Source: Escherichia coli | Lineage (GTDB): Bacteria > Pseudomonadota > Gammaproteobacteria > Enterobacterales > Enterobacteriaceae | Reading direction: 5' to 3' (one strand) | Assembly: GCF_044647545.1 (NCBI RefSeq) | Contig: NZ_CP172818.1 | DNA length: 64,000 nt | Part shown: one piece after another, positions 3,334-40,119 of the stretch | Layout: each line of letters starts with the position of its first letter | How positions within the stretch are numbered: the stretch's first letter is position 1 | Translations under genes and position numbers: made by a program | The notes under the pieces: model-generated | Databases searched by the model: none | What the model saw: the letters and a program-made list of their open reading frames with translations, nothing else | What the model was told of the DNA's origin: nothing

Positions 3334-4439
3334 CGCGTCAGCTTAAGTGCAGTCTTCGGTACACAACTACAGCAAAGAATAGTGCCATCATCACCCATTG
3401 CTGATTTTTTCAGCGGCGTGACTTCGCCTTCTAAAAGCTGAACACGGCAACTTCCACAAATGCCCGCGCGGCAAGAATAAGGGATACGAATTCCCTGATT
3501 TTCTAATTGCTCCAGCAGCACCTGTTGGTTATTTCCACGAAATGCCTGTCCCTGCCAGTCAATATCTACGTTTGCGTCCGGTTGTTGCGTGATGTTGGCA
3601 GTATCATCGGCGGCACCTGTGCCGTAAATTTTAGCTGGAGCCGTTGCCAGAATTTCCACCTCATCGCCAACGCGAATCACGCCGCTATTACGGGCAATTA
3701 AATTCTGACCAAAATCGACATCGCCGTTATCCTGGGCAGTACGGAAAGATTGCAGCGTTTTTAATGGTTCGCCTGCCGGATGTTTTTGCCCTTTTTCTGG
3801 GCTGACGGTGGTGAAAATACAGCGGCTACAAGGCTTAACCACATCAAACACGACATCACCAATGCGAATCACTTTCCAGCTATCTTCTTCCCAGGTCGAT
3901 GCACCGGAAACCACCAGATTGGGGCGGAATTGCTCCATTTTTACACTGGCCGGACAACGTTGTTGGAGATCACGTAACGAGGCCTCGTTAGCAAGAAGGT
4001 AAGGATAGCCATCAGCAAATGACAGGGGTACAGTGTTGTGGCGTTTCACGCGCCGGGTCATTTGTGGCCCCACCCAGCGTAATTGCACTTCGCGGGAGAA
4101 AAATCCACTTAGCCATTTGTTGATCGCGTCTGGCGCAATTCGCGCGGTAAAATGTGTGCCCCAAACTTCGGTTGGTGCGTCTTGTGTGGCGAAATCAGCA
4201 AAACGAACATATGCGCTACTGCCATCTGGTGCGGTGAGATGCAAGCCATCATGCACAGGTGAAGGAATAAACCGTACCATCTGGGGAAACTGGCGAGCAG
4301 TAATAAACGTACCGTCAGGTTCCGTGATCATAAAGATGCGATCGAAGGCCAGACCACTGACATCTGCCAGAGCATGTGTAAGACCAATGCCGCGCATCGA
4401 TTTAACAGGATGAATAAAAAGCCGGGTTAATGTCGCCAC
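3330..4439 (-). CDS. ycbX: MOSC/2Fe-2S ferredoxin-domain protein
   Basis: 369-aa [23 protein letters not shown]...; C-terminal CxxGxCGxC ferredoxin motif (CRAGICGSC). Confidence 0.9.
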
Positions 4440-4536
4440 GGTGCGGTCCTCAAATGAAAATAAGCCCTCAACTTTATGACATGACGCGCTTATTAGCTAT
4501 AATGCGCAACAATTTTCTTAGAGTAAAAGTGACGAT

Positions 4537-6645
4537 ATGAATTCTCTGTTTGCCAGTACGGCCCGTGGGCTGGAAGAGCTGTTAAAAACTGAACTGGAAA
4601 ACCTGGGGGCCGTTGAATGCCAGGTGGTTCAGGGTGGGGTCCATTTCAAGGGCGACACACGGCTTGTTTACCAGAGCCTGATGTGGAGCCGCCTGGCCTC
4701 GCGTATTATGTTGCCGCTGGGCGAGTGCAAGGTTTACAGCGATTTAGACCTCTATCTCGGTGTTCAGGCGATCAACTGGACAGAGATGTTTAATCCTGGC
4801 GCGACCTTCGCTGTCCACTTCAGTGGTTTGAATGACACCATACGCAACAGTCAGTACGGTGCGATGAAAGTGAAAGACGCGATCGTCGATACTTTCACGC
4901 GGAAAAATCTGCCGCGTCCAAATGTTGATCGCGATGCGCCGGATATCCGCGTTAACGTCTGGCTGCATAAAGAAACCGCCAGTATCGCCCTTGATCTCAG
5001 TGGTGATGGTTTACATCTGCGTGGCTATCGTGATCGTGCTGGAATTGCGCCGATCAAAGAAACCCTGGCAGCCGCGATTGTTATGCGATCCGGCTGGCAG
5101 CCAGGAACACCGCTGCTCGATCCAATGTGTGGTTCTGGTACGTTGCTGATTGAAGCGGCGATGCTGGCGACCGATCGCGCACCAGGCTTGCACCGTGGAC
5201 GTTGGGGCTTTAGCGGCTGGGCGCAGCATGATGAAGCTATCTGGCAGGAAGTGAAAGCGGAAGCGCAAACTCGTGCCCGTAAAGGCCTGGCGGAGTACAG
5301 CTCCCATTTCTACGGTTCGGACAGTGACGCACGTGTGATTCAACGTGCGCGCACTAACGCCCGTCTTGCGGGGATTGGTGAACTGATCACCTTTGAGGTG
5401 AAAGATGTCGCGCAACTGACCAATCCGCTGCCGAAAGGGCCGTACGGTACAGTGTTGAGCAACCCGCCATACGGTGAACGTCTGGACAGCGAACCGGCGC
5501 TGATTGCGCTGCATAGTCTGCTGGGCCGAATCATGAAAAACCAGTTCGGTGGCTGGAATCTCTCTTTGTTTAGTGCCTCGCCGGATCTGCTCAGCTGCCT
5601 GCAGCTGCGTGCAGACAAACAGTACAAGGCGAAAAACGGCCCGCTGGACTGCGTACAGAAAAACTACCATGTTGCCGAAAGCACACCAGACAGCAAACCG
5701 GCGATGGTAGCGGAAGACTACGCCAACCGTCTGCGTAAGAACCTCAAAAAATTCGAGAAGTGGGCTCGCCAGGAAGGGATTGAATGTTACCGCCTGTATG
5801 ACGCCGATCTGCCGGAATATAACGTTGCCGTTGATCGTTATGCCGACTGGGTGGTGGTGCAGGAGTATGCGCCGCCAAAAACTATTGATGCGCACAAAGC
5901 GCGTCAGCGTCTGTTCGATATTATCGCTGCAACCATTTCGGTACTGGGGATTGCGCCAAACAAACTGGTGCTGAAAACCCGTGAACGCCAGAAGGGCAAA
6001 AATCAGTACCAGAAACTGGGCGAGAAGGGCGAGTTTCTCGAAGTCACCGAATATAACGCTCACTTGTGGGTGAACCTGACGGATTACCTCGATACCGGTC
6101 TGTTCCTCGATCACCGTATCGCCCGTCGTATGCTCGGTCAGATGAGCAAAGGCAAAGATTTCCTCAACCTGTTCTCTTATACCGGCAGCGCCACCGTGCA
6201 TGCGGGATTAGGCGGCGCGCGCAGCACCACCACCGTGGATATGTCGCGTACTTATCTGGAGTGGGCAGAACGCAACCTGCGTCTGAATGGCTTAACCGGG
6301 CGTGCGCATCGCCTGATTCAGGCCGATTGCCTGGCGTGGCTGCGTGAGGCAAATGAACAGTTCGATCTGATCTTTATCGATCCGCCAACCTTCTCTAACT
6401 CAAAACGAATGGAAGATGCGTTTGATGTTCAGCGCGATCATCTGGCGCTGATGAAAGATTTGAAACGTCTGCTGCGTGCTGGTGGGACGATCATGTTCTC
6501 GAACAACAAACGCGGTTTCCGTATGGATCTCGACGGTCTGGCGAAACTGGGACTGAAAGCACAAGAAATTACGCAAAAAACGCTCTCCCAGGATTTCGCC
6601 CGTAACCGCCAGATCCACAACTGCTGGCTGATTACCGCAGCCTGA
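4537..6645 (+). CDS. rlmL: 23S rRNA m2G2445/m7G2069 methyltransferase RlmKL
   Basis: 702-aa [28 protein letters not shown]...; SAM-MTase motifs ([16 protein letters not shown]). Confidence 0.95.
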
Positions 6646-12208: not shown

Positions 12209-12407
12209 GTCTCTAACGTGCGGAAAAAGTTGTTCCTCTTCACATTTTTTGTACAACTGACATGCCCGTGTAGCTCACAAATATGACAGTGGCGTGAATT
12301 TTGCGCATTGACGGCAGTTATGATTCGCGGTATTGCTTAACTGTGATTGCACATTTAGTAATCACTGTTTTCTTTTCCACCAGAAACCAGTATGAGGGAA
12401 ACGAGGC

Positions 12408-12575
12408 ATGAAGAGACAAAAACGAGATCGCCTGGAACGGGCACATCAACGTGGTTATCAGGCCGGCATAGCCGGACGCTCAAAAGAAATGTGTCCCTAT
12501 CAGACGCTGAATCAAAGGTCACAATGGCTGGGAGGCTGGCGAGAAGCCATGGCGGACAGGGTAGTAATGGCCTGA
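12408..12575 (+). CDS. rmf: Ribosome modulation factor
   Basis: 55-aa ORF MKRQKRDRLERAHQRGYQAGIAGRSKEMCPYQ...; absent from the track (under 60 aa); GAGG RBS upstream. Confidence 0.9.
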   Translation: MKRQKRDRLERAHQRGYQAGIAGRSKEMCPYQTLNQRSQWLGGWREAMADRVVMA

Positions 12576-12593
12576 TTCTGTCTCTTTAAAAAG

Positions 12594-12627
12594 AAACCTC
12601 CGCATTGCGGAGGTTTCGCCTTTTTAT
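12594..12627. terminator. Bidirectional terminator between rmf and fabA
   Basis: Hairpin aaacctccgc attg cggaggttt followed by TTTTT; lies between convergent genes. Confidence 0.7.
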
Positions 12628-28319: not shown

Positions 28320-28407
28320 TGGCGGAAGCGCAGAGATTCGAACTCTGGAACCCTTTCGGGTCGCCGGTTTTCAAGACCGGTGCCTTCAACCGCTCGGCCA
28401 CACTTCC
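28320..28407 (-). tRNA. serT: tRNA-Ser (anticodon UGA)
   Basis: Reverse complement reads GGAAGTGTGGCCGAGCGGTTGAAGGCACCGGTCTTGAAAACCGG...GCTTCCGCCA: 88 nt, long variable arm, CCA end, anticodon loop CT-TGA-AA; terminator hairpin at about 28285-28310. Confidence 0.9.
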
Positions 28408-34433: not shown

Positions 34434-35978
34434 ATGTGGGATGTCATTGATTTATCGCGCTGGCAGTTTGCACTGACCGCGCTGTATCACTTTTTATTTG
34501 TACCCCTTACCCTGGGGCTGATTTTTTTGCTGGCTATCATGGAAACCATTTACGTGGTCACCGGCAAAACAATCTACCGCGATATGACGCGCTTCTGGGG
34601 TAAGCTCTTCGGTATCAACTTTGCTCTTGGCGTGGCTACCGGCCTGACCATGGAGTTTCAGTTTGGTACTAACTGGTCATTCTATTCCAACTATGTGGGC
34701 GATATTTTTGGCGCACCGCTGGCAATGGAAGCATTAATGGCCTTCTTCCTCGAATCCACCTTTGTCGGGCTGTTCTTCTTCGGCTGGCAGCGGCTGAATA
34801 AATACCAGCACCTGCTGGTGACGTGGCTGGTGGCGTTCGGTTCAAATCTCTCTGCATTGTGGATATTGAATGCCAACGGTTGGATGCAATACCCGACCGG
34901 TGCGCATTTTGATATCGACACCCTGCGTATGGAGATGACCAGTTTCAGCGAGTTGGTCTTTAACCCGGTCAGCCAGGTGAAATTTGTGCACACCGTAATG
35001 GCGGGATACGTGACCGGGGCCATGTTTATTATGGCGATCAGCGCCTGGTATTTACTGCGCGGACGGGAGCGCGATGTCGCATTACGCTCGTTTGCCATCG
35101 GTTCCGTCTTCGGTACTCTGGCGATTATCGGTACGCTGCAACTCGGAGACAGTTCTGCGTATGAAGTCGCGCAAGTACAACCGGTAAAACTGGCGGCGAT
35201 GGAAGGGGAGTGGCAAACAGAACCTGCACCTGCACCGTTCCATGTGGTTGCCTGGCCGGAACAGGATCAAGAGCGTAACGCCTTTGCCATCAAAATTCCC
35301 GCGCTGCTAGGGATCCTCGCCACTCACTCATTAGATAAACCCGTGCCGGGTCTGAAGAATTTGATGGCTGAAACCTACCCACGCTTGCAACGCGGACGTA
35401 TGGCCTGGCTGTTAATGCAGGAAATATCGCAAGGCAATCGTGAGCCGCATGTGTTGCAGGCATTCCGGGAGCTGGAAGGCGACCTGGGTTACGGCATGTT
35501 GCTCTCCCGCTATGCGCCGGATATGAATCATGTCACAGCCACACAGTACCAGGCGGCGATGCGTGGCGCGATACCTCAGGTTGCGCCGGTATTCTGGAGT
35601 TTCCGCATCATGGTAGGCTGTGGTTCCCTGCTGTTACTGGTGATGCTGATTGCGCTTGTCCAGACGCTGCGTGGCAAAATCGACCAGCATCGCTGGGTGC
35701 TGAAAATGGCGCTCTGGAGTTTGCCGCTTCCGTGGATTGCGATTGAAGCCGGATGGTTTATGACCGAGTTTGGTCGTCAGCCGTGGGCGATACAGGACAT
35801 CTTACCGACATACTCCGCGCACTCCGCCTTAACCACAGGACAACTGGCTTTCTCACTGATCATGATCGTAGGGCTTTACACCCTGTTCTTAATCGCCGAA
35901 GTCTACCTGATGCAGAAATATGCCCGTCTGGGGCCGAGCGCGATGCAGAGTGAACAACCGACGCAGCAACAGGGGTAA
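34434..35978 (+). CDS. appC: Cytochrome bd-II oxidase subunit I
   Basis: 514-aa [34 protein letters not shown]... Confidence 0.95.
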
Positions 35979-35989
35979 AGGAGAAAATC

Positions 35990-37126
35990 ATGTTTGATTA
36001 TGAAACATTGCGCTTCATCTGGTGGCTGCTGATTGGCGTGATCCTGGTGGTCTTTATGGTCTCCGACGGATTTGACATGGGGATCGGCTGTCTGCTGCCG
36101 CTGGTGGCGCGTAATGATGATGAACGTCGGATAGTGATAAACAGCGTTGGCGCGCACTGGGAAGGCAATCAGGTCTGGTTGATCCTCGCAGGTGGGGCAT
36201 TATTTGCCGCCTGGCCCAGAGTGTATGCAGCGGCGTTTTCCGGCTTTTATGTGGCGATGATCCTGGTGCTGTGCTCGCTGTTCTTCCGCCCGCTGGCCTT
36301 TGATTATCGCGGAAAAATTGCCGATGCACGCTGGCGTAAAATGTGGGATGCCGGTCTGGTCATCGGCAGTCTGGTGCCGCCGGTAGTCTTCGGTATCGCC
36401 TTCGGCAACTTGTTGCTCGGCGTGCCGTTTGCCTTTACACCGCAATTACGCGTGGAGTATCTCGGCAGCTTCTGGCAACTGCTGACGCCATTCCCTTTAT
36501 TGTGCGGATTGCTCAGCCTTGGGATGGTGATTTTGCAAGGTGGCGTCTGGTTACAACTGAAAACTGTTGGTGTGATTCATCTGCGTTCACAGCTCGCGAC
36601 CAAACGCGCCGCACTACTGGTGATGCTGTGCTTTTTGCTGGCGGGTTACTGGCTGTGGGTCGGTATTGATGGCTTTGTACTGCTCGCCCAGGATGCTAAC
36701 GGTCCTTCCAATCCGTTAATGAAACTGGTGGCAGTGCTACCTGGTGCCTGGATGAATAATTTTGTCGAATCGCCCGTTTTGTGGATCTTCCCGCTGCTGG
36801 GGTTCTTCTGCCCATTGCTGACGGTGATGGCGATTTATCGTGGTCGCCCGGGTTGGGGATTTTTGATGGCATCATTGATGCAATTTGGCGTGATTTTCAC
36901 GGCAGGCATCACGCTGTTCCCCTTTGTCATGCCGTCAAGCGTGAGTCTAATCTCCAGCCTGACGTTGTGGGACAGCACTTCCAGTCAGCTGACGCTGAGC
37001 ATTATGTTGGTAATCGTGCTGATATTTTTGCCTATTGTGTTGCTCTACACTCTCTGGAGCTACTACAAAATGTGGGGACGCATGACGACAGAAACTCTCC
37101 GCCGTAACGAAAACGAGCTGTACTAA
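35990..37126 (+). CDS. appB: Cytochrome bd-II oxidase subunit II
   Basis: 378-aa [36 protein letters not shown]... Confidence 0.95.
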
Positions 37127-37138
37127 GGAGCAGGAACA

Positions 37139-37231
37139 ATGTGGTATTTACTTTGGTTCGTCGGCATTTTGTTGATGTGTTCGCTCTCCACCCTTGTGTT
37201 GGTATGGCTGGACCCGCGTCTGAAAAGTTAA
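37139..37231 (+). CDS. appX: Cytochrome bd-II small subunit AppX (YccB)
   Basis: 30-aa hydrophobic ORF MWYLLWFVGILLMCSLSTLVLVWLDPRLKS with AGGAG RBS; too short for the supplied track. Confidence 0.8.
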   Translation: MWYLLWFVGILLMCSLSTLVLVWLDPRLKS

Positions 37232-37240
37232 CGAACGTAA

Positions 37241-37272
37241 GCCTGATGTGGCGCATTAGCATCGCATCAGGC
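37241..37272. repeat. REP-like palindrome / terminator hairpin after appCBX
   Basis: gcctgatg...catcaggc inverted repeat. Confidence 0.55.
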
Positions 37273-37310
37273 AATCAATAATGTCAGATATGAAAAGCGG
37301 AAACATATCG

Positions 37311-38576
37311 ATGAAAGCGATCTTAATCCCATTCTTATCTCTTCTGATTCCGTTCACCCCGCAATCTGCATTCGCTCAGAGTGAGCCGGAGCTGAAGCTG
37401 GAAAGTGTGGTGATTGTCAGTCGTCATGGTGTGCGTGCTCCAACCAAGGCCACGCAACTGATGCAGGATGTCACCCCAGACGCATGGCCAACCTGGCCGG
37501 TAAAACTGGGTTGGCTGACACCGCGCGGTGGTGAGCTGATCGCCTATCTCGGACATTACCAACGCCAGCGTCTGGTAGCCGACGGATTGCTGACGAAAAA
37601 GGGCTGCCCGCAGCCTGGTCAGGTCGCGATTATTGCTGATGTCGACGAGCGTACCCGTAAAACAGGCGAAGCCTTCGCCGCCGGGCTGGCACCTGACTGT
37701 GCAATAACCGTACATACCCAGGCAGATACGTCCAGTCCCGATCCGTTATTTAATCCTCTAAAAAATGGCGTTTGCCAACTGGATAACGCGAATGTGACTG
37801 ACGCGATCCTCAGCAGGGCAGGAGGGTCAATTGCTGACTTTACCGGGCATCGGCAAACGGCGTTTCGCGAACTGGAACAGGTGCTTAATTTCCCACAATC
37901 AAACTTGTGCCTTAACCGTGAGAAACAGGACAAAAGTTGTTCATTAACGCAGGCATTACCATCGGAACTCAAGGTGAGCGCCGACAATGTCTCATTAACC
38001 GGTGCGGTAAGCCTAGCGTCAATGCTGACGGAGATATTTCTCCTGCAACAGGCACAAGGAATGCCGGAGCCGGGGTGGGGAAGGATCACTGATTCACACC
38101 AGTGGAACACCTTGCTAAGTTTGCATAACGCGCAATTTTATTTACTACAACGCACGCCAGAGGTTGCCCGCAGTCGCGCCACCCCGTTATTGGATTTGAT
38201 CATGGCAGCGTTGACGCCCCATCCACCGCAAAAACAGGCGTATGGTGTGACATTACCCACTTCAGTGCTGTTTATCGCCGGACACGATACTAATCTGGCA
38301 AATCTCGGCGGCGCACTGGAGCTCAACTGGACGCTTCCTGGTCAGCCGGATAACACGCCGCCAGGAGGTGAACTGGTGTTTGAACGCTGGCGTCGGCTTA
38401 GCGATAACAGCCAGTGGATTCAGGTTTCGCTGGTCTTTCAGACTTTACAGCAGATGCGTGATAAAACGCCGCTATCATTAAATACGCCGCCCGGAGAGGT
38501 GAAACTGACCCTGGCAGGATGTGAAGAGCGAAACGCGCAGGGCAGTGTTCGTTGGCCGGTTTTACGCAAATCGTGA
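37311..38576 (+). CDS. appA: Periplasmic phytase / acid phosphatase AppA with frameshifted, truncated C-terminus
   Basis: ATG at 37311 gives MKAILIPFLSLLIPFTPQSAFA signal peptide; RHGVRAP histidine acid phosphatase motif. Frame ends ...NAQGSVRWPVLRKS*, whereas the +1 frame reads LAGFTQIVNE (the expected AppA C-terminus, recalled) before running into GC-rich DNA. Confidence 0.85.
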   Translation: MKAILIPFLSLLIPFTPQSAFAQSEPELKLESVVIVSRHGVRAPTKATQLMQDVTPDAWPTWPVKLGWLTPRGGELIAYLGHYQRQRLVADGLLTKKGCPQPGQVAIIADVDERTRKTGEAFAAGLAPDCAITVHTQADTSSPDPLFNPLKNGVCQLDNANVTDAILSRAGGSIADFTGHRQTAFRELEQVLNFPQSNLCLNREKQDKSCSLTQALPSELKVSADNVSLTGAVSLASMLTEIFLLQQAQGMPEPGWGRITDSHQWNTLLSLHNAQFYLLQRTPEVARSRATPLLDLIMAALTPHPPQKQAYGVTLPTSVLFIAGHDTNLANLGGALELNWTLPGQPDNTPPGGELVFERWRRLSDNSQWIQVSLVFQTLQQMRDKTPLSLNTPPGEVKLTLAGCEERNAQGSVRWPVLRKS

Positions 38577-38581
38577 ATGAA

Positions 38582-38840
38582 CGGGGGGACGACGGGCGAC
38601 GGGGGCCGCGGGGAAGACGACGGGACGCGGGGCTATCCGCCAGCGCGGCTGTTCGCGTTGCGGGTCGCGGCGCGGGCCCCGTGGTGCGCCTGCCGCTGGG
38701 CGCCTGGCCTGCTCGGCCTGCGGGGGTTGGTGCGGCGGGGCCGCTTGTCCCGCCGGGCGCCGCGCGCGTCCGCGGGCGGCCGTCGGCGCTCGGCGCGGGC
38801 GGGCCGCGCCTCGGGGGCCGCCCCCCCCGGGCGCCTCTCC
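38582..38840. other. Compositionally foreign GC-rich block (about 85% GC) at the appA-cspH junction; origin unknown
   Basis: Counted 80-93% GC per 60-nt line against roughly 50% in flanks; G/C homopolymer runs (8 C at 38821-38828); open frames on both strands with Arg/Gly/Pro/Ala-rich translations and no RBS. Confidence 0.8.
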
Positions 38841-38841
38841 A

Positions 38842-39054
38842 TCAAGACAAATAAACATTTGCCGCTGTTGGTCCTCGCAGGCCATTTACGCGGCAAAATT
38901 CCACGCGTAATCCTGGTATAAGCACTTCTGCGTCGCGGGGAGTGAATGCGGAAATATGGACCTGGACTTCTTTACGACCGTCGGAGGGGATAATGAATCC
39001 TTTGCCGCTTTTGCGATCAAAGGTTTTGACAATTCCTGTCATTTTACGGGACAA
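38842..39054 (-). CDS. cspH: Cold-shock-like protein CspH
   Basis: 70-aa [40 protein letters not shown]... Confidence 0.9.
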
Positions 39055-39339
39055 ACAAATTCCTTACTGAAAATACTGCGCTGCACTATACGGGGTTAAT
39101 AAAATAAAGCCAGCGATATTTAAGACCGCCGGACGGCTAAAATAAAATTTGCTTAATCTCAATTATCATGCGTTAATAGCTGCGTCGGTTTGAAAGACAG
39201 ACAGCATACAAAGTAGTTTACTAAAGCAGTTCTCATTATCAGGCATTATCCCCTTCTTTTGAGTCTCTCTCCTGAACACTAAGTAGTTTCTGTATTAAAG
39301 CCCTGTTTGCCGAAAGGCCCAAAATGAAGGAAGTAAAAT

Positions 39340-39552
39340 ATGTCTAATAAAATGACTGGTTTAGTAAAATGGTTTAACGCAGATAAAGGTTTTGGCTTTA
39401 TCACTCCTGATGATGGCAGCAAAGACGTTTTCGTCCATTTCACCGCCATCCAGAGCAATGAATTCCGCACGCTGAACGAAAATCAGAAAGTTGAATTTTC
39501 TATTGAGCAGGGGCAACGTGGTCCCGCGGCAGCGAACGTTGTTACGCTCTAA
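39340..39552 (+). CDS. cspG: Cold-shock protein CspG
   Basis: 70-aa [40 protein letters not shown]... (RNP1-like KGFGFI). Confidence 0.95.
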
Positions 39553-39725
39553 GGTTGCCGTTATTACTCAACATCTCCATTTCCGCTGTCCATGTTGTCA
39601 TGGTTCACAGTACCGCACATCGGCATTCGATGTGACGGAGCGAAATCCTTTAGGGGCAAAGTGTATTTTTTGTAAATCGACGATGATCACCTTTGATAAC
39701 GTCGCGCTGCAAATACGCACTGAGC

Positions 39726-39956
39726 ATGCGCCGCTGGATTTCACAAAATAATATCAGGCTCCCTCGTGGAGCCTTTTTTATATCTGCCTTATTTTTCTTC
39801 AACGCTGTATGTATAGTAAGCGATAACCTGTTGATTATTGAATCTTTCGGGGAGATGGCTTATAACATTTCTTACCTGACCAGGGTACCGGGAACCAACA
39901 CCTTACTGGCGTGTTGCTGTCATTTAAGACCAGAAGAGGTTAACAGTGAATATTGA
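39726..39956 (+). CDS. ymcE: Small protein YmcE (cold-shock locus)
   Basis: 76-aa ORF MRRWISQNNIRLPRGAFFISALFFFNAVCIV... Confidence 0.7.
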   Translation: MRRWISQNNIRLPRGAFFISALFFFNAVCIVSDNLLIIESFGEMAYNISYLTRVPGTNTLLACCCHLRPEEVNSEY

Positions 39957-40119
39957 AGAGTTAAAAAAACAAGCCGAAACGGAAATCGCTGACTTTATCG
40001 CGCAAAAAATCGCCGAGCTGAACAAGAATACAGGGAAAGAAGTCTCTGAAATTCGCTTCACCGCACGAGAAAAAATGACCGGGCTTGAAAGTTATGATGT
40101 CAAAATCAAAATAATGTGA
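39946..40119 (+). CDS. gnsA: GnsA (secG-null suppressor, unsaturated fatty-acid regulator)
   Basis: GTG start at 39946; 57-aa ORF (M)NIEELKKQAETEIADFIAQKIAELNKNTGKEV...; under the track threshold. Confidence 0.75.
   Translation: MNIEELKKQAETEIADFIAQKIAELNKNTGKEVSEIRFTAREKMTGLESYDVKIKIM

Follow-up and report, generated by a model that had tools for sequence, protein, structure and literature searches.

Four known small protein genes of Escherichia coli hidden or mis-started by the rules of an open reading frame track in a 64-kb chromosomal window

In a stretch of 64,000 nucleotides (nt) of the Escherichia coli chromosome that runs from ycbU to putA (contig NZ_CP172818.1, hereafter called the window), four small protein genes, rmf, appX, gnsA and ymdF, are lost or given a wrong start when the DNA is read through a track of open reading frames (ORFs) of at least 60 amino acids (aa). 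A sequence-only reading of the window had recognised these four genes by eye and had placed them at the following positions, given here together with their annotation as coding sequences (CDS).

12408-12575, plus strand: rmf, encoding ribosome modulation factor; ATG start, 55 aa; RefSeq CDS, K-12 gene b0953.
37139-37231, plus strand: appX (cbdX, formerly yccB); ATG start, 30 aa; cbdX in RefSeq, K-12 gene b4592.
39946-40119, plus strand: gnsA; GTG start, 57 aa; present in RefSeq, K-12 gene b4517.
55958-56131, plus strand: ymdF, encoding a KGG-repeat stress protein; ATG start, 57 aa; present in RefSeq, K-12 gene b4518.

The RefSeq annotation was carried over from the closest genome, that of strain FDAARGOS_497 (NZ_CP033850.1, 3433108-3496876), to which the window aligns as two pieces with 99.984% and 99.980% identity, and the K-12 annotation was compared alongside. 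The ORF lists, RefSeq and K-12 agree with the coordinates, lengths and start codons that had been proposed for all four genes, which moreover constitute all annotated CDS shorter than 60 aa in the window, both in the closest RefSeq genome and in K-12. The four proteins are 100% identical to their K-12 counterparts, and the few nucleotide differences are all synonymous. Each protein scores far above the cut-off of its Pfam family, namely RMF (79.6 bits versus a cut-off of 27.9, E = 1.7e-22), YbgT_YccB for AppX (45.4 versus 26.2, E = 8.5e-12), GnsAB_toxin for GnsA (122.3 versus 27, E = 7.6e-36) and KGG for YmdF (67 versus 20.4, E = 1.6e-18). RMF and AppX/CbdX additionally pass NCBIfam equivalog cut-offs, and solved structures exist for the products of rmf, appX and gnsA.

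Translation initiation signals were scored as the pairing, in kcal/mol, of positions -20 to -3 relative to a start codon with the 3' end of the 16S rRNA, i.e. as the strength of the Shine-Dalgarno (SD) sequence, and ATG, GTG and TTG triplets sampled across the window served as background (median -2.1, 5th percentile -5.9 kcal/mol). The annotated starts of rmf (12408, -6.1), appX (37139, -8.3), gnsA (39946, -6.5) and ymdF (55958, -10.2) all fall within the best 5% or so of the start codons of the window, whereas the rival starts score around zero or above: the ymdF extension at 55928 (+1.2), an out-of-frame start at 12392 over rmf (+0.2) and the TTG extensions of two neighbouring genes, ymcF at 39491 (+0.1) and ymcE at 39693 (+0.3). 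The sequence-only reading had named the lack of an initiation signal at these starts as the result that would speak against it; an SD sequence is present at all four, so the claim stands. The four genes are not mentioned in the main texts of the ribosome-profiling papers of Stringer et al. and Weaver et al. For gnsA, the GTG start is backed by the annotation, by a family alignment that begins at residue 1 and by the SD sequence at 39946. As had been noted from the letters, ymdF is visible in the track only as an over-extended frame, a 67-aa ATG ORF at 55928-56131, the true start being at 55958. Two rules of the track, a floor of 60 aa and the choice of always the most upstream start codon, account for all four cases, and under such rules real genes would be lost or mis-started. 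Taken together, rmf, appX, gnsA and ymdF are almost certainly known, conserved and translated small protein genes of E. coli, which the track misses or mis-starts through its own rules only, as judged from sequence comparison. The genes, their products and three of the four structures have already been published, and the observation is correct but ordinary.

The rmf gene carries its own signals on both sides.

12394-12398 (approximately), plus strand: SD sequence GAGGG of rmf, -6.1 kcal/mol.
12593-12617, bidirectional: terminator-like hairpin with an 11 bp stem following rmf, found by a hairpin scan.

Its product aligns with Pfam PF04957 over model positions 1-52 of 53, scores 92.1 bits versus 40 with NCBIfam model NF011162, and matches over its full length (residues 1-55) the chains named 'Ribosome modulation factor' in PDB entries 6H4N and 4V8G, which we take to be ribosome complexes. 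In stationary phase, RMF attaches to the 30S subunit and makes 70S ribosomes pair up as 100S dimers, the hibernating form. Given the 100% identity to the K-12 protein and the matches to the PDB chains, RMF of this strain would be expected to function likewise in 30S binding and 100S formation. In another frame, a 65-aa ATG ORF (12392-12589) that lacks an SD sequence covers rmf almost wholly, and the track would display it in the place of rmf.

The appX gene is the last gene of appCBX and lies directly downstream of the genes for both large oxidase subunits.

34434-35978: appC (RefSeq).
35990-37126: appB, with its stop codon at 37124-37126 (RefSeq).

As appX starts 12 nt past the appB stop codon and its SD sequence AAGGAG (37125-37130) overlaps that stop codon, the arrangement suggests that translation of appB and appX is coupled. 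The 30-aa product, MWYLLWFVGILLMCSLSTLVLVW, is hydrophobic by direct reading. It aligns with the NCBIfam CbdX equivalog model NF011333 over its whole length (1-30 of 30, 80.8 bits versus 57), belongs to Pfam family PF08173, and matches chain C of PDB entry 7OSE over residues 1-30 (E = 8e-16) as well as chain X of 7OY2. AppX has been identified in the purified complex by mass spectrometry and cryo-electron microscopy, and was described as a 30-residue single helix that is buried in the membrane and contacts helices 1, 5 and 6 of AppC (PMC8585947). In view of the sequence identity, AppX encoded here would act in the same manner, as a single transmembrane helix packed on AppC of cytochrome bd-II.

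The strongest initiation signal among the four belongs to ymdF.

55947-55952, plus strand: SD sequence GGAGGT of ymdF, -10.2 kcal/mol.
56184-56204, bidirectional: terminator-like hairpin in the ymdF-rutG spacer, found by the hairpin scan.

Two KGG repeats (PF10685) score above the Pfam cut-off, and YmdF would be a glycine-rich KGG-repeat 'hydrophilin' and a paralogue of YciG. Peptides of Salmonella YmdF have been detected by liquid chromatography-mass spectrometry in a sigma-S dependent manner (PMC5437024), and a dependence on RpoS may be carried over from this orthologue to the E. coli gene. Beside the terminator between ymdF and rutG, the window has a 2-nt deletion at 56183 that recurs in no more than one other genome of the collection.

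The fourth gene, gnsA, closes a compact cluster of cold shock genes and small genes.

38842-39054, minus strand: cspH, 70 aa with a TTG start; CspH equivalog, 176 bits versus 141.
39340-39552, plus strand: cspG, 70 aa; RefSeq and NCBIfam.
39563-39751, plus strand: ymcF, 62 aa with an ATT start; 'cold shock small protein YmcF' in RefSeq, as called by the Prokaryotic Genome Annotation Pipeline (PGAP), K-12 gene b4723.
39726-39956, plus strand: ymcE, 76 aa; shown in the track as an 87-aa TTG frame.
39756-39774, plus strand: terminator-like hairpin with a T-run, 5 nt past the ymcF stop codon and within the annotated ymcE CDS.

The GTG start codon of gnsA lies upstream of the ymcE stop, the two genes overlapping by 11 nt at the 3' end of ymcE, and the gnsA SD sequence AGAGGT is found at 39935-39940. 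GnsA aligns with Pfam PF08178 over the whole model (1-54 of 54), and its residues 1-57 match PDB entries 4XO1 and 4XO2. Clones of gnsA and of its paralogue gnsB rescue growth defects tied to low membrane fluidity, and expression of gnsA raises the levels of the 16:1 and 18:1 fatty acids (bioRxiv 10.1101/2024.03.27.586906). Over-expression of the identical GnsA of this strain would likewise raise the unsaturated fatty acid content. The bioRxiv paper cites Rock 1996 and Sugai 2001.

Whereas the list of hidden genes drawn up in the sequence-only reading is complete for CDS shorter than 60 aa, it omits ymcF, the gene whose wrong start is most evident in this region. This gene begins 10 nt downstream of the cspG stop codon and encodes a zinc-ribbon-like small protein of the CxxC…CxxC type that aligns over its full length (1-62 of 62) with the Pfam family YmcF-like (PF23641; 164.4 bits versus 27). 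It appears in the track only as a wrong 86-aa TTG frame (39491-39751) that overlaps cspG and begins 24 codons too early, because the track accepts ATG, GTG and TTG starts only. For the annotated start of ymcE, no SD match was found (+1.3 kcal/mol). The hairpin at 39756-39774 encodes the YmcE stretch '…RLPRGAFF…', and the equivalent position in the Qin cryptic prophage is occupied by the 21-aa ynfR ('…APSGAFLL…').

The cluster as a whole (38842-40119) is paralogous to the Qin module cspI-ynfQ-ynfR-ynfN-gnsB (positions 3610-4668 of the retrieved Qin locus), with 75% DNA identity between cspG-ymcF and cspI-ynfQ and 73% between gnsA and gnsB. Because of this paralogy, the gnsA neighbourhood is probably of prophage origin. 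A tblastn search of the window with the Qin small proteins YnfR, YnfN, YnfS and YnfU returned chance-level matches only.

The sequence-only reading had also pointed to two intergenic regions, 39055-39339 between cspH and cspG and 55586-55957 between wrbA and ymdF, as places where further small proteins might be encoded, with the caution that none could be supported from the sequence, and this caution proved justified for both. In the wrbA-ymdF spacer, no ORF of at least 10 aa is preceded by an SD sequence of -5 kcal/mol or better. The cspH-cspG spacer matches K-12 without a single difference, and 5,082 of the 5,413 records with a match reach an identity of at least 99%; none of the 25 records listed has an annotated feature there. 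A large part of it is accounted for by an RNA element.

39184-39606, plus strand: cspA thermoregulator (Rfam RF01766), 157.1 bits versus a gathering threshold of 78, E = 5.7e-41, aligned over the whole model (1-428 of 428).

This element consists of the 5' untranslated region (5' UTR) and the CDS of cspG, and covers 39184-39339, roughly the cspG-proximal half of the spacer. The remaining 130 nt or so beside cspH are assumed to hold the divergent csp promoters; a consensus promoter scan of this part gave one weak promoter-like match only, at chance frequency.

The junction between appA and cspH, which lies between appX and the csp cluster, differs from that of K-12. The K-12 segment etk-etp-gfcEDCBA-IS1D (about 9 kb), situated there between appA and cspH, is absent from the window, in which appA abuts cspH; in FDAARGOS_497, the 3' end of appA overlaps cspH by 13 nt. 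A stretch of 3.5 kb around positions 37139-40119 has a match in 5,422 of the 5,426 complete E. coli genomes, and approximately 1,680 of the 5,426 match at least 80% of this query at one place, which suggests that the compact appA/cspH arrangement is common to them. At this junction the window contains a block of extreme base composition (38582-38833) that the sequence-only reading does not mention and that belongs to none of the small genes, though it lies within 37139-40119. The block measures 252 bp and has a G+C (GC) content of 85.7%, compared with a mean of 51.6% (standard deviation 5.2%, maximum 63.9%) for the other 252-bp segments of the window. It counts 123 G, 93 C, 26 T and 10 A; all ten A's fall in its first 61 nt, and none occurs after position 38642, i.e. 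in the last 191 nt. Relative to the closest genome, from which the window otherwise differs at about ten positions, the block stands in the place of a 19-nt hairpin, GCACGCATACCGGCGTGCG, at the 3' junction of appA and cspH. A deletion of one T at 38545, 37 nt upstream of the block, shifts the frame of appA and truncates its product (…NAQG|SVRWPVLRKS*). The block creates four spurious ORFs of 87-114 aa, all of which a track of at least 60 aa would display as candidate genes.

Elsewhere in the window, a 1-nt insertion at 1468 (ycbF) is shared with 11 other, sequence type (ST) 648-like genomes, and therefore represents a real polymorphism. Rfam matches include the nucleoid-associated RNA naRNA4 (CssrE), derived from repetitive extragenic palindromes (REP), on the minus strand at 50288-50366 in the torD-cbpM spacer (81.9 bits), a PyrD leader at 1539-1612, and a tRNA-Ser that Rfam places at 28323-28407 and the annotation at 28320-28407.

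That some of the four small genes are chance ORFs, or are translated from other starts, has a next to negligible probability in our judgement. The best case for it is ymdF, of which the 67-aa frame from 55928 is open and initiated by an ATG. Yet position 55928 lacks an SD sequence (+1.2 kcal/mol, versus -10.2 at 55958), both K-12 and PGAP start the gene at 55958, and the alignments with the family models begin at the first residue of the annotated forms; for gnsA, the GTG at 39946 is the furthest-upstream start that its frame allows. No finding speaks against the reading of the four as established small protein genes, though two caveats apply. NCBIfam gives no match for GnsA or YmdF, but their Pfam matches are decisive. 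Furthermore, the role of GnsA as toxin of a putative GnsA-YmcE pair comes from the Pfam naming, to which the window adds only the adjacency of the two genes and their 11-nt overlap; as ymcE has no SD sequence and contains a terminator-like hairpin, the toxin-antitoxin reading is not strengthened here. It is likewise very unlikely, if somewhat less so than chance origin or other starts of the four, that the two flagged spacers hold unannotated small genes. The best candidates lie on the minus strand of the cspH-cspG spacer, upstream of cspH: two nested ATG ORFs, 39166-39246 (26 aa) and 39159-39236 (25 aa), which are preceded by GAAGGGG (-7.9 kcal/mol over positions -20 to -3, -6.7 in the window-wide scan) in a spacer that is strongly conserved across E. 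coli and identical to K-12. This conservation is, however, explained by the thermoregulator in the cspG 5' UTR on the opposite strand, and signals of this strength occur at the chance rate: across the window, 122 intergenic ORFs of 12-59 aa lack annotation, and 6 of them reach -6.5 kcal/mol. In Qin, the spacer between cspB and cspF, a paralogue of this one, lacks the first ATG and has an indel of 1 nt that shifts the frame; of the 5 codon changes in the second ORF, 4 are non-synonymous. K-12, in which small proteins have been curated most thoroughly, has no entry in the cspH-cspG spacer. Both ORFs, which run antisense to the cspG 5' UTR, were judged fortuitous, as they are unconserved in the Qin paralogue.

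The block at the appA/cspH junction is most likely an artefact of sequencing or assembly. The competing explanation, a genuine strain-specific insertion of foreign, non-E. coli DNA that was captured or synthesised at the deletion junction and truncated the AppA phytase, is in our view unlikely. It draws on the recombination-prone nature of the junction, where the window lacks the etk-gfc-IS1 segment found in K-12, on the high quality of the rest of the window, with about ten differences from the closest genome, and on a weak 3-periodicity, the GC content being 0.94 in one codon phase versus 0.81 and 0.82 in the others. Nevertheless, what would be the second codon position has a G+C of about 82%, unlike in real high-GC genes, so that the block is unlikely to stem from coding DNA, and the lack of any A over the last 191 nt is likewise unnatural. 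None of the collections searched contains the block: with E values of up to 10 allowed, blastn found no match in any of the 5,426 complete E. coli genomes, and Rfam none either; plasmids gave chance-level matches only, and scans of genome, viral and metagenome collections for exact words of 22-25 nt from the block came back empty. The products of its ORFs and the truncated AppA have no record in public gene calls, and a 66-mer spanning the accompanying frameshift deletion at 38545 matches none of 5,419 genomes at 99% or more. Neither a target-site duplication nor a terminal repeat surrounds the block, a search for internal and inverted repeats gave weak pairs only, and a folding test against shuffled sequence gave no sign of a special structure (z = +0.36). 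Derivation of the block from local DNA or from the K-12 gfc region by transition or transversion hypermutation was considered as well and rejected, the best match in reduced alphabets being 0.65, i.e. chance.

No new biology follows from the four small genes, and their significance is that of a note on method: a 60-aa floor and a longest-ORF rule hide four real genes in a 64-kb window, and the same rules mis-start at least three genes (ymdF, ymcF and ymcE). The track displays spurious frames as well, namely the 65-aa ORF over rmf and the four ORFs of 87-114 aa in the GC-rich block, which chiefly serves as a quality warning for that part of the record. To the sequence-only reading, the analysis adds the ATT-started ymcF, a partial explanation of the seemingly empty cspH-cspG spacer, a negative result on small genes beyond the annotated ones and the caution regarding the block.

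Compared with known systems, the genes closely follow those of K-12, and the gnsA cluster has its paralogue in Qin. RMF (PF04957) is the same 55-aa protein as that encoded by b0953, at the same pqiC-fabA locus and with its own SD sequence and terminator, the sole difference detected from K-12 rmf being one synonymous nucleotide. AppX equals the K-12 AppX/CbdX (b4592), the CydX-family protein of cytochrome bd-II, in nucleotides and protein alike, without any difference. YmdF, a member of the YmdF/YciG KGG hydrophilins, has the same 57 aa and two KGG repeats as b4518 and likewise lies between wrbA and rutG, whereas the ymdF-rutG spacer is shorter, with 83 nt in the closest genome versus 257 nt in K-12. 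In the YmcF/YnfQ family, ymcF shares with b4723 its length of 62 aa, the ATT start, the two CxxC pairs and the position 10 nt after a cspA-family gene, and differs by one conservative substitution (E54 here, D in K-12); its Qin paralogue ynfQ starts with ATT likewise. The gnsB module of Qin differs in its middle part, where ymcE is replaced by ynfR and ynfN with no detectable similarity, whereas GnsA itself is the identical 57-aa protein of K-12 (b4517), with the same GTG start overlapping ymcE.

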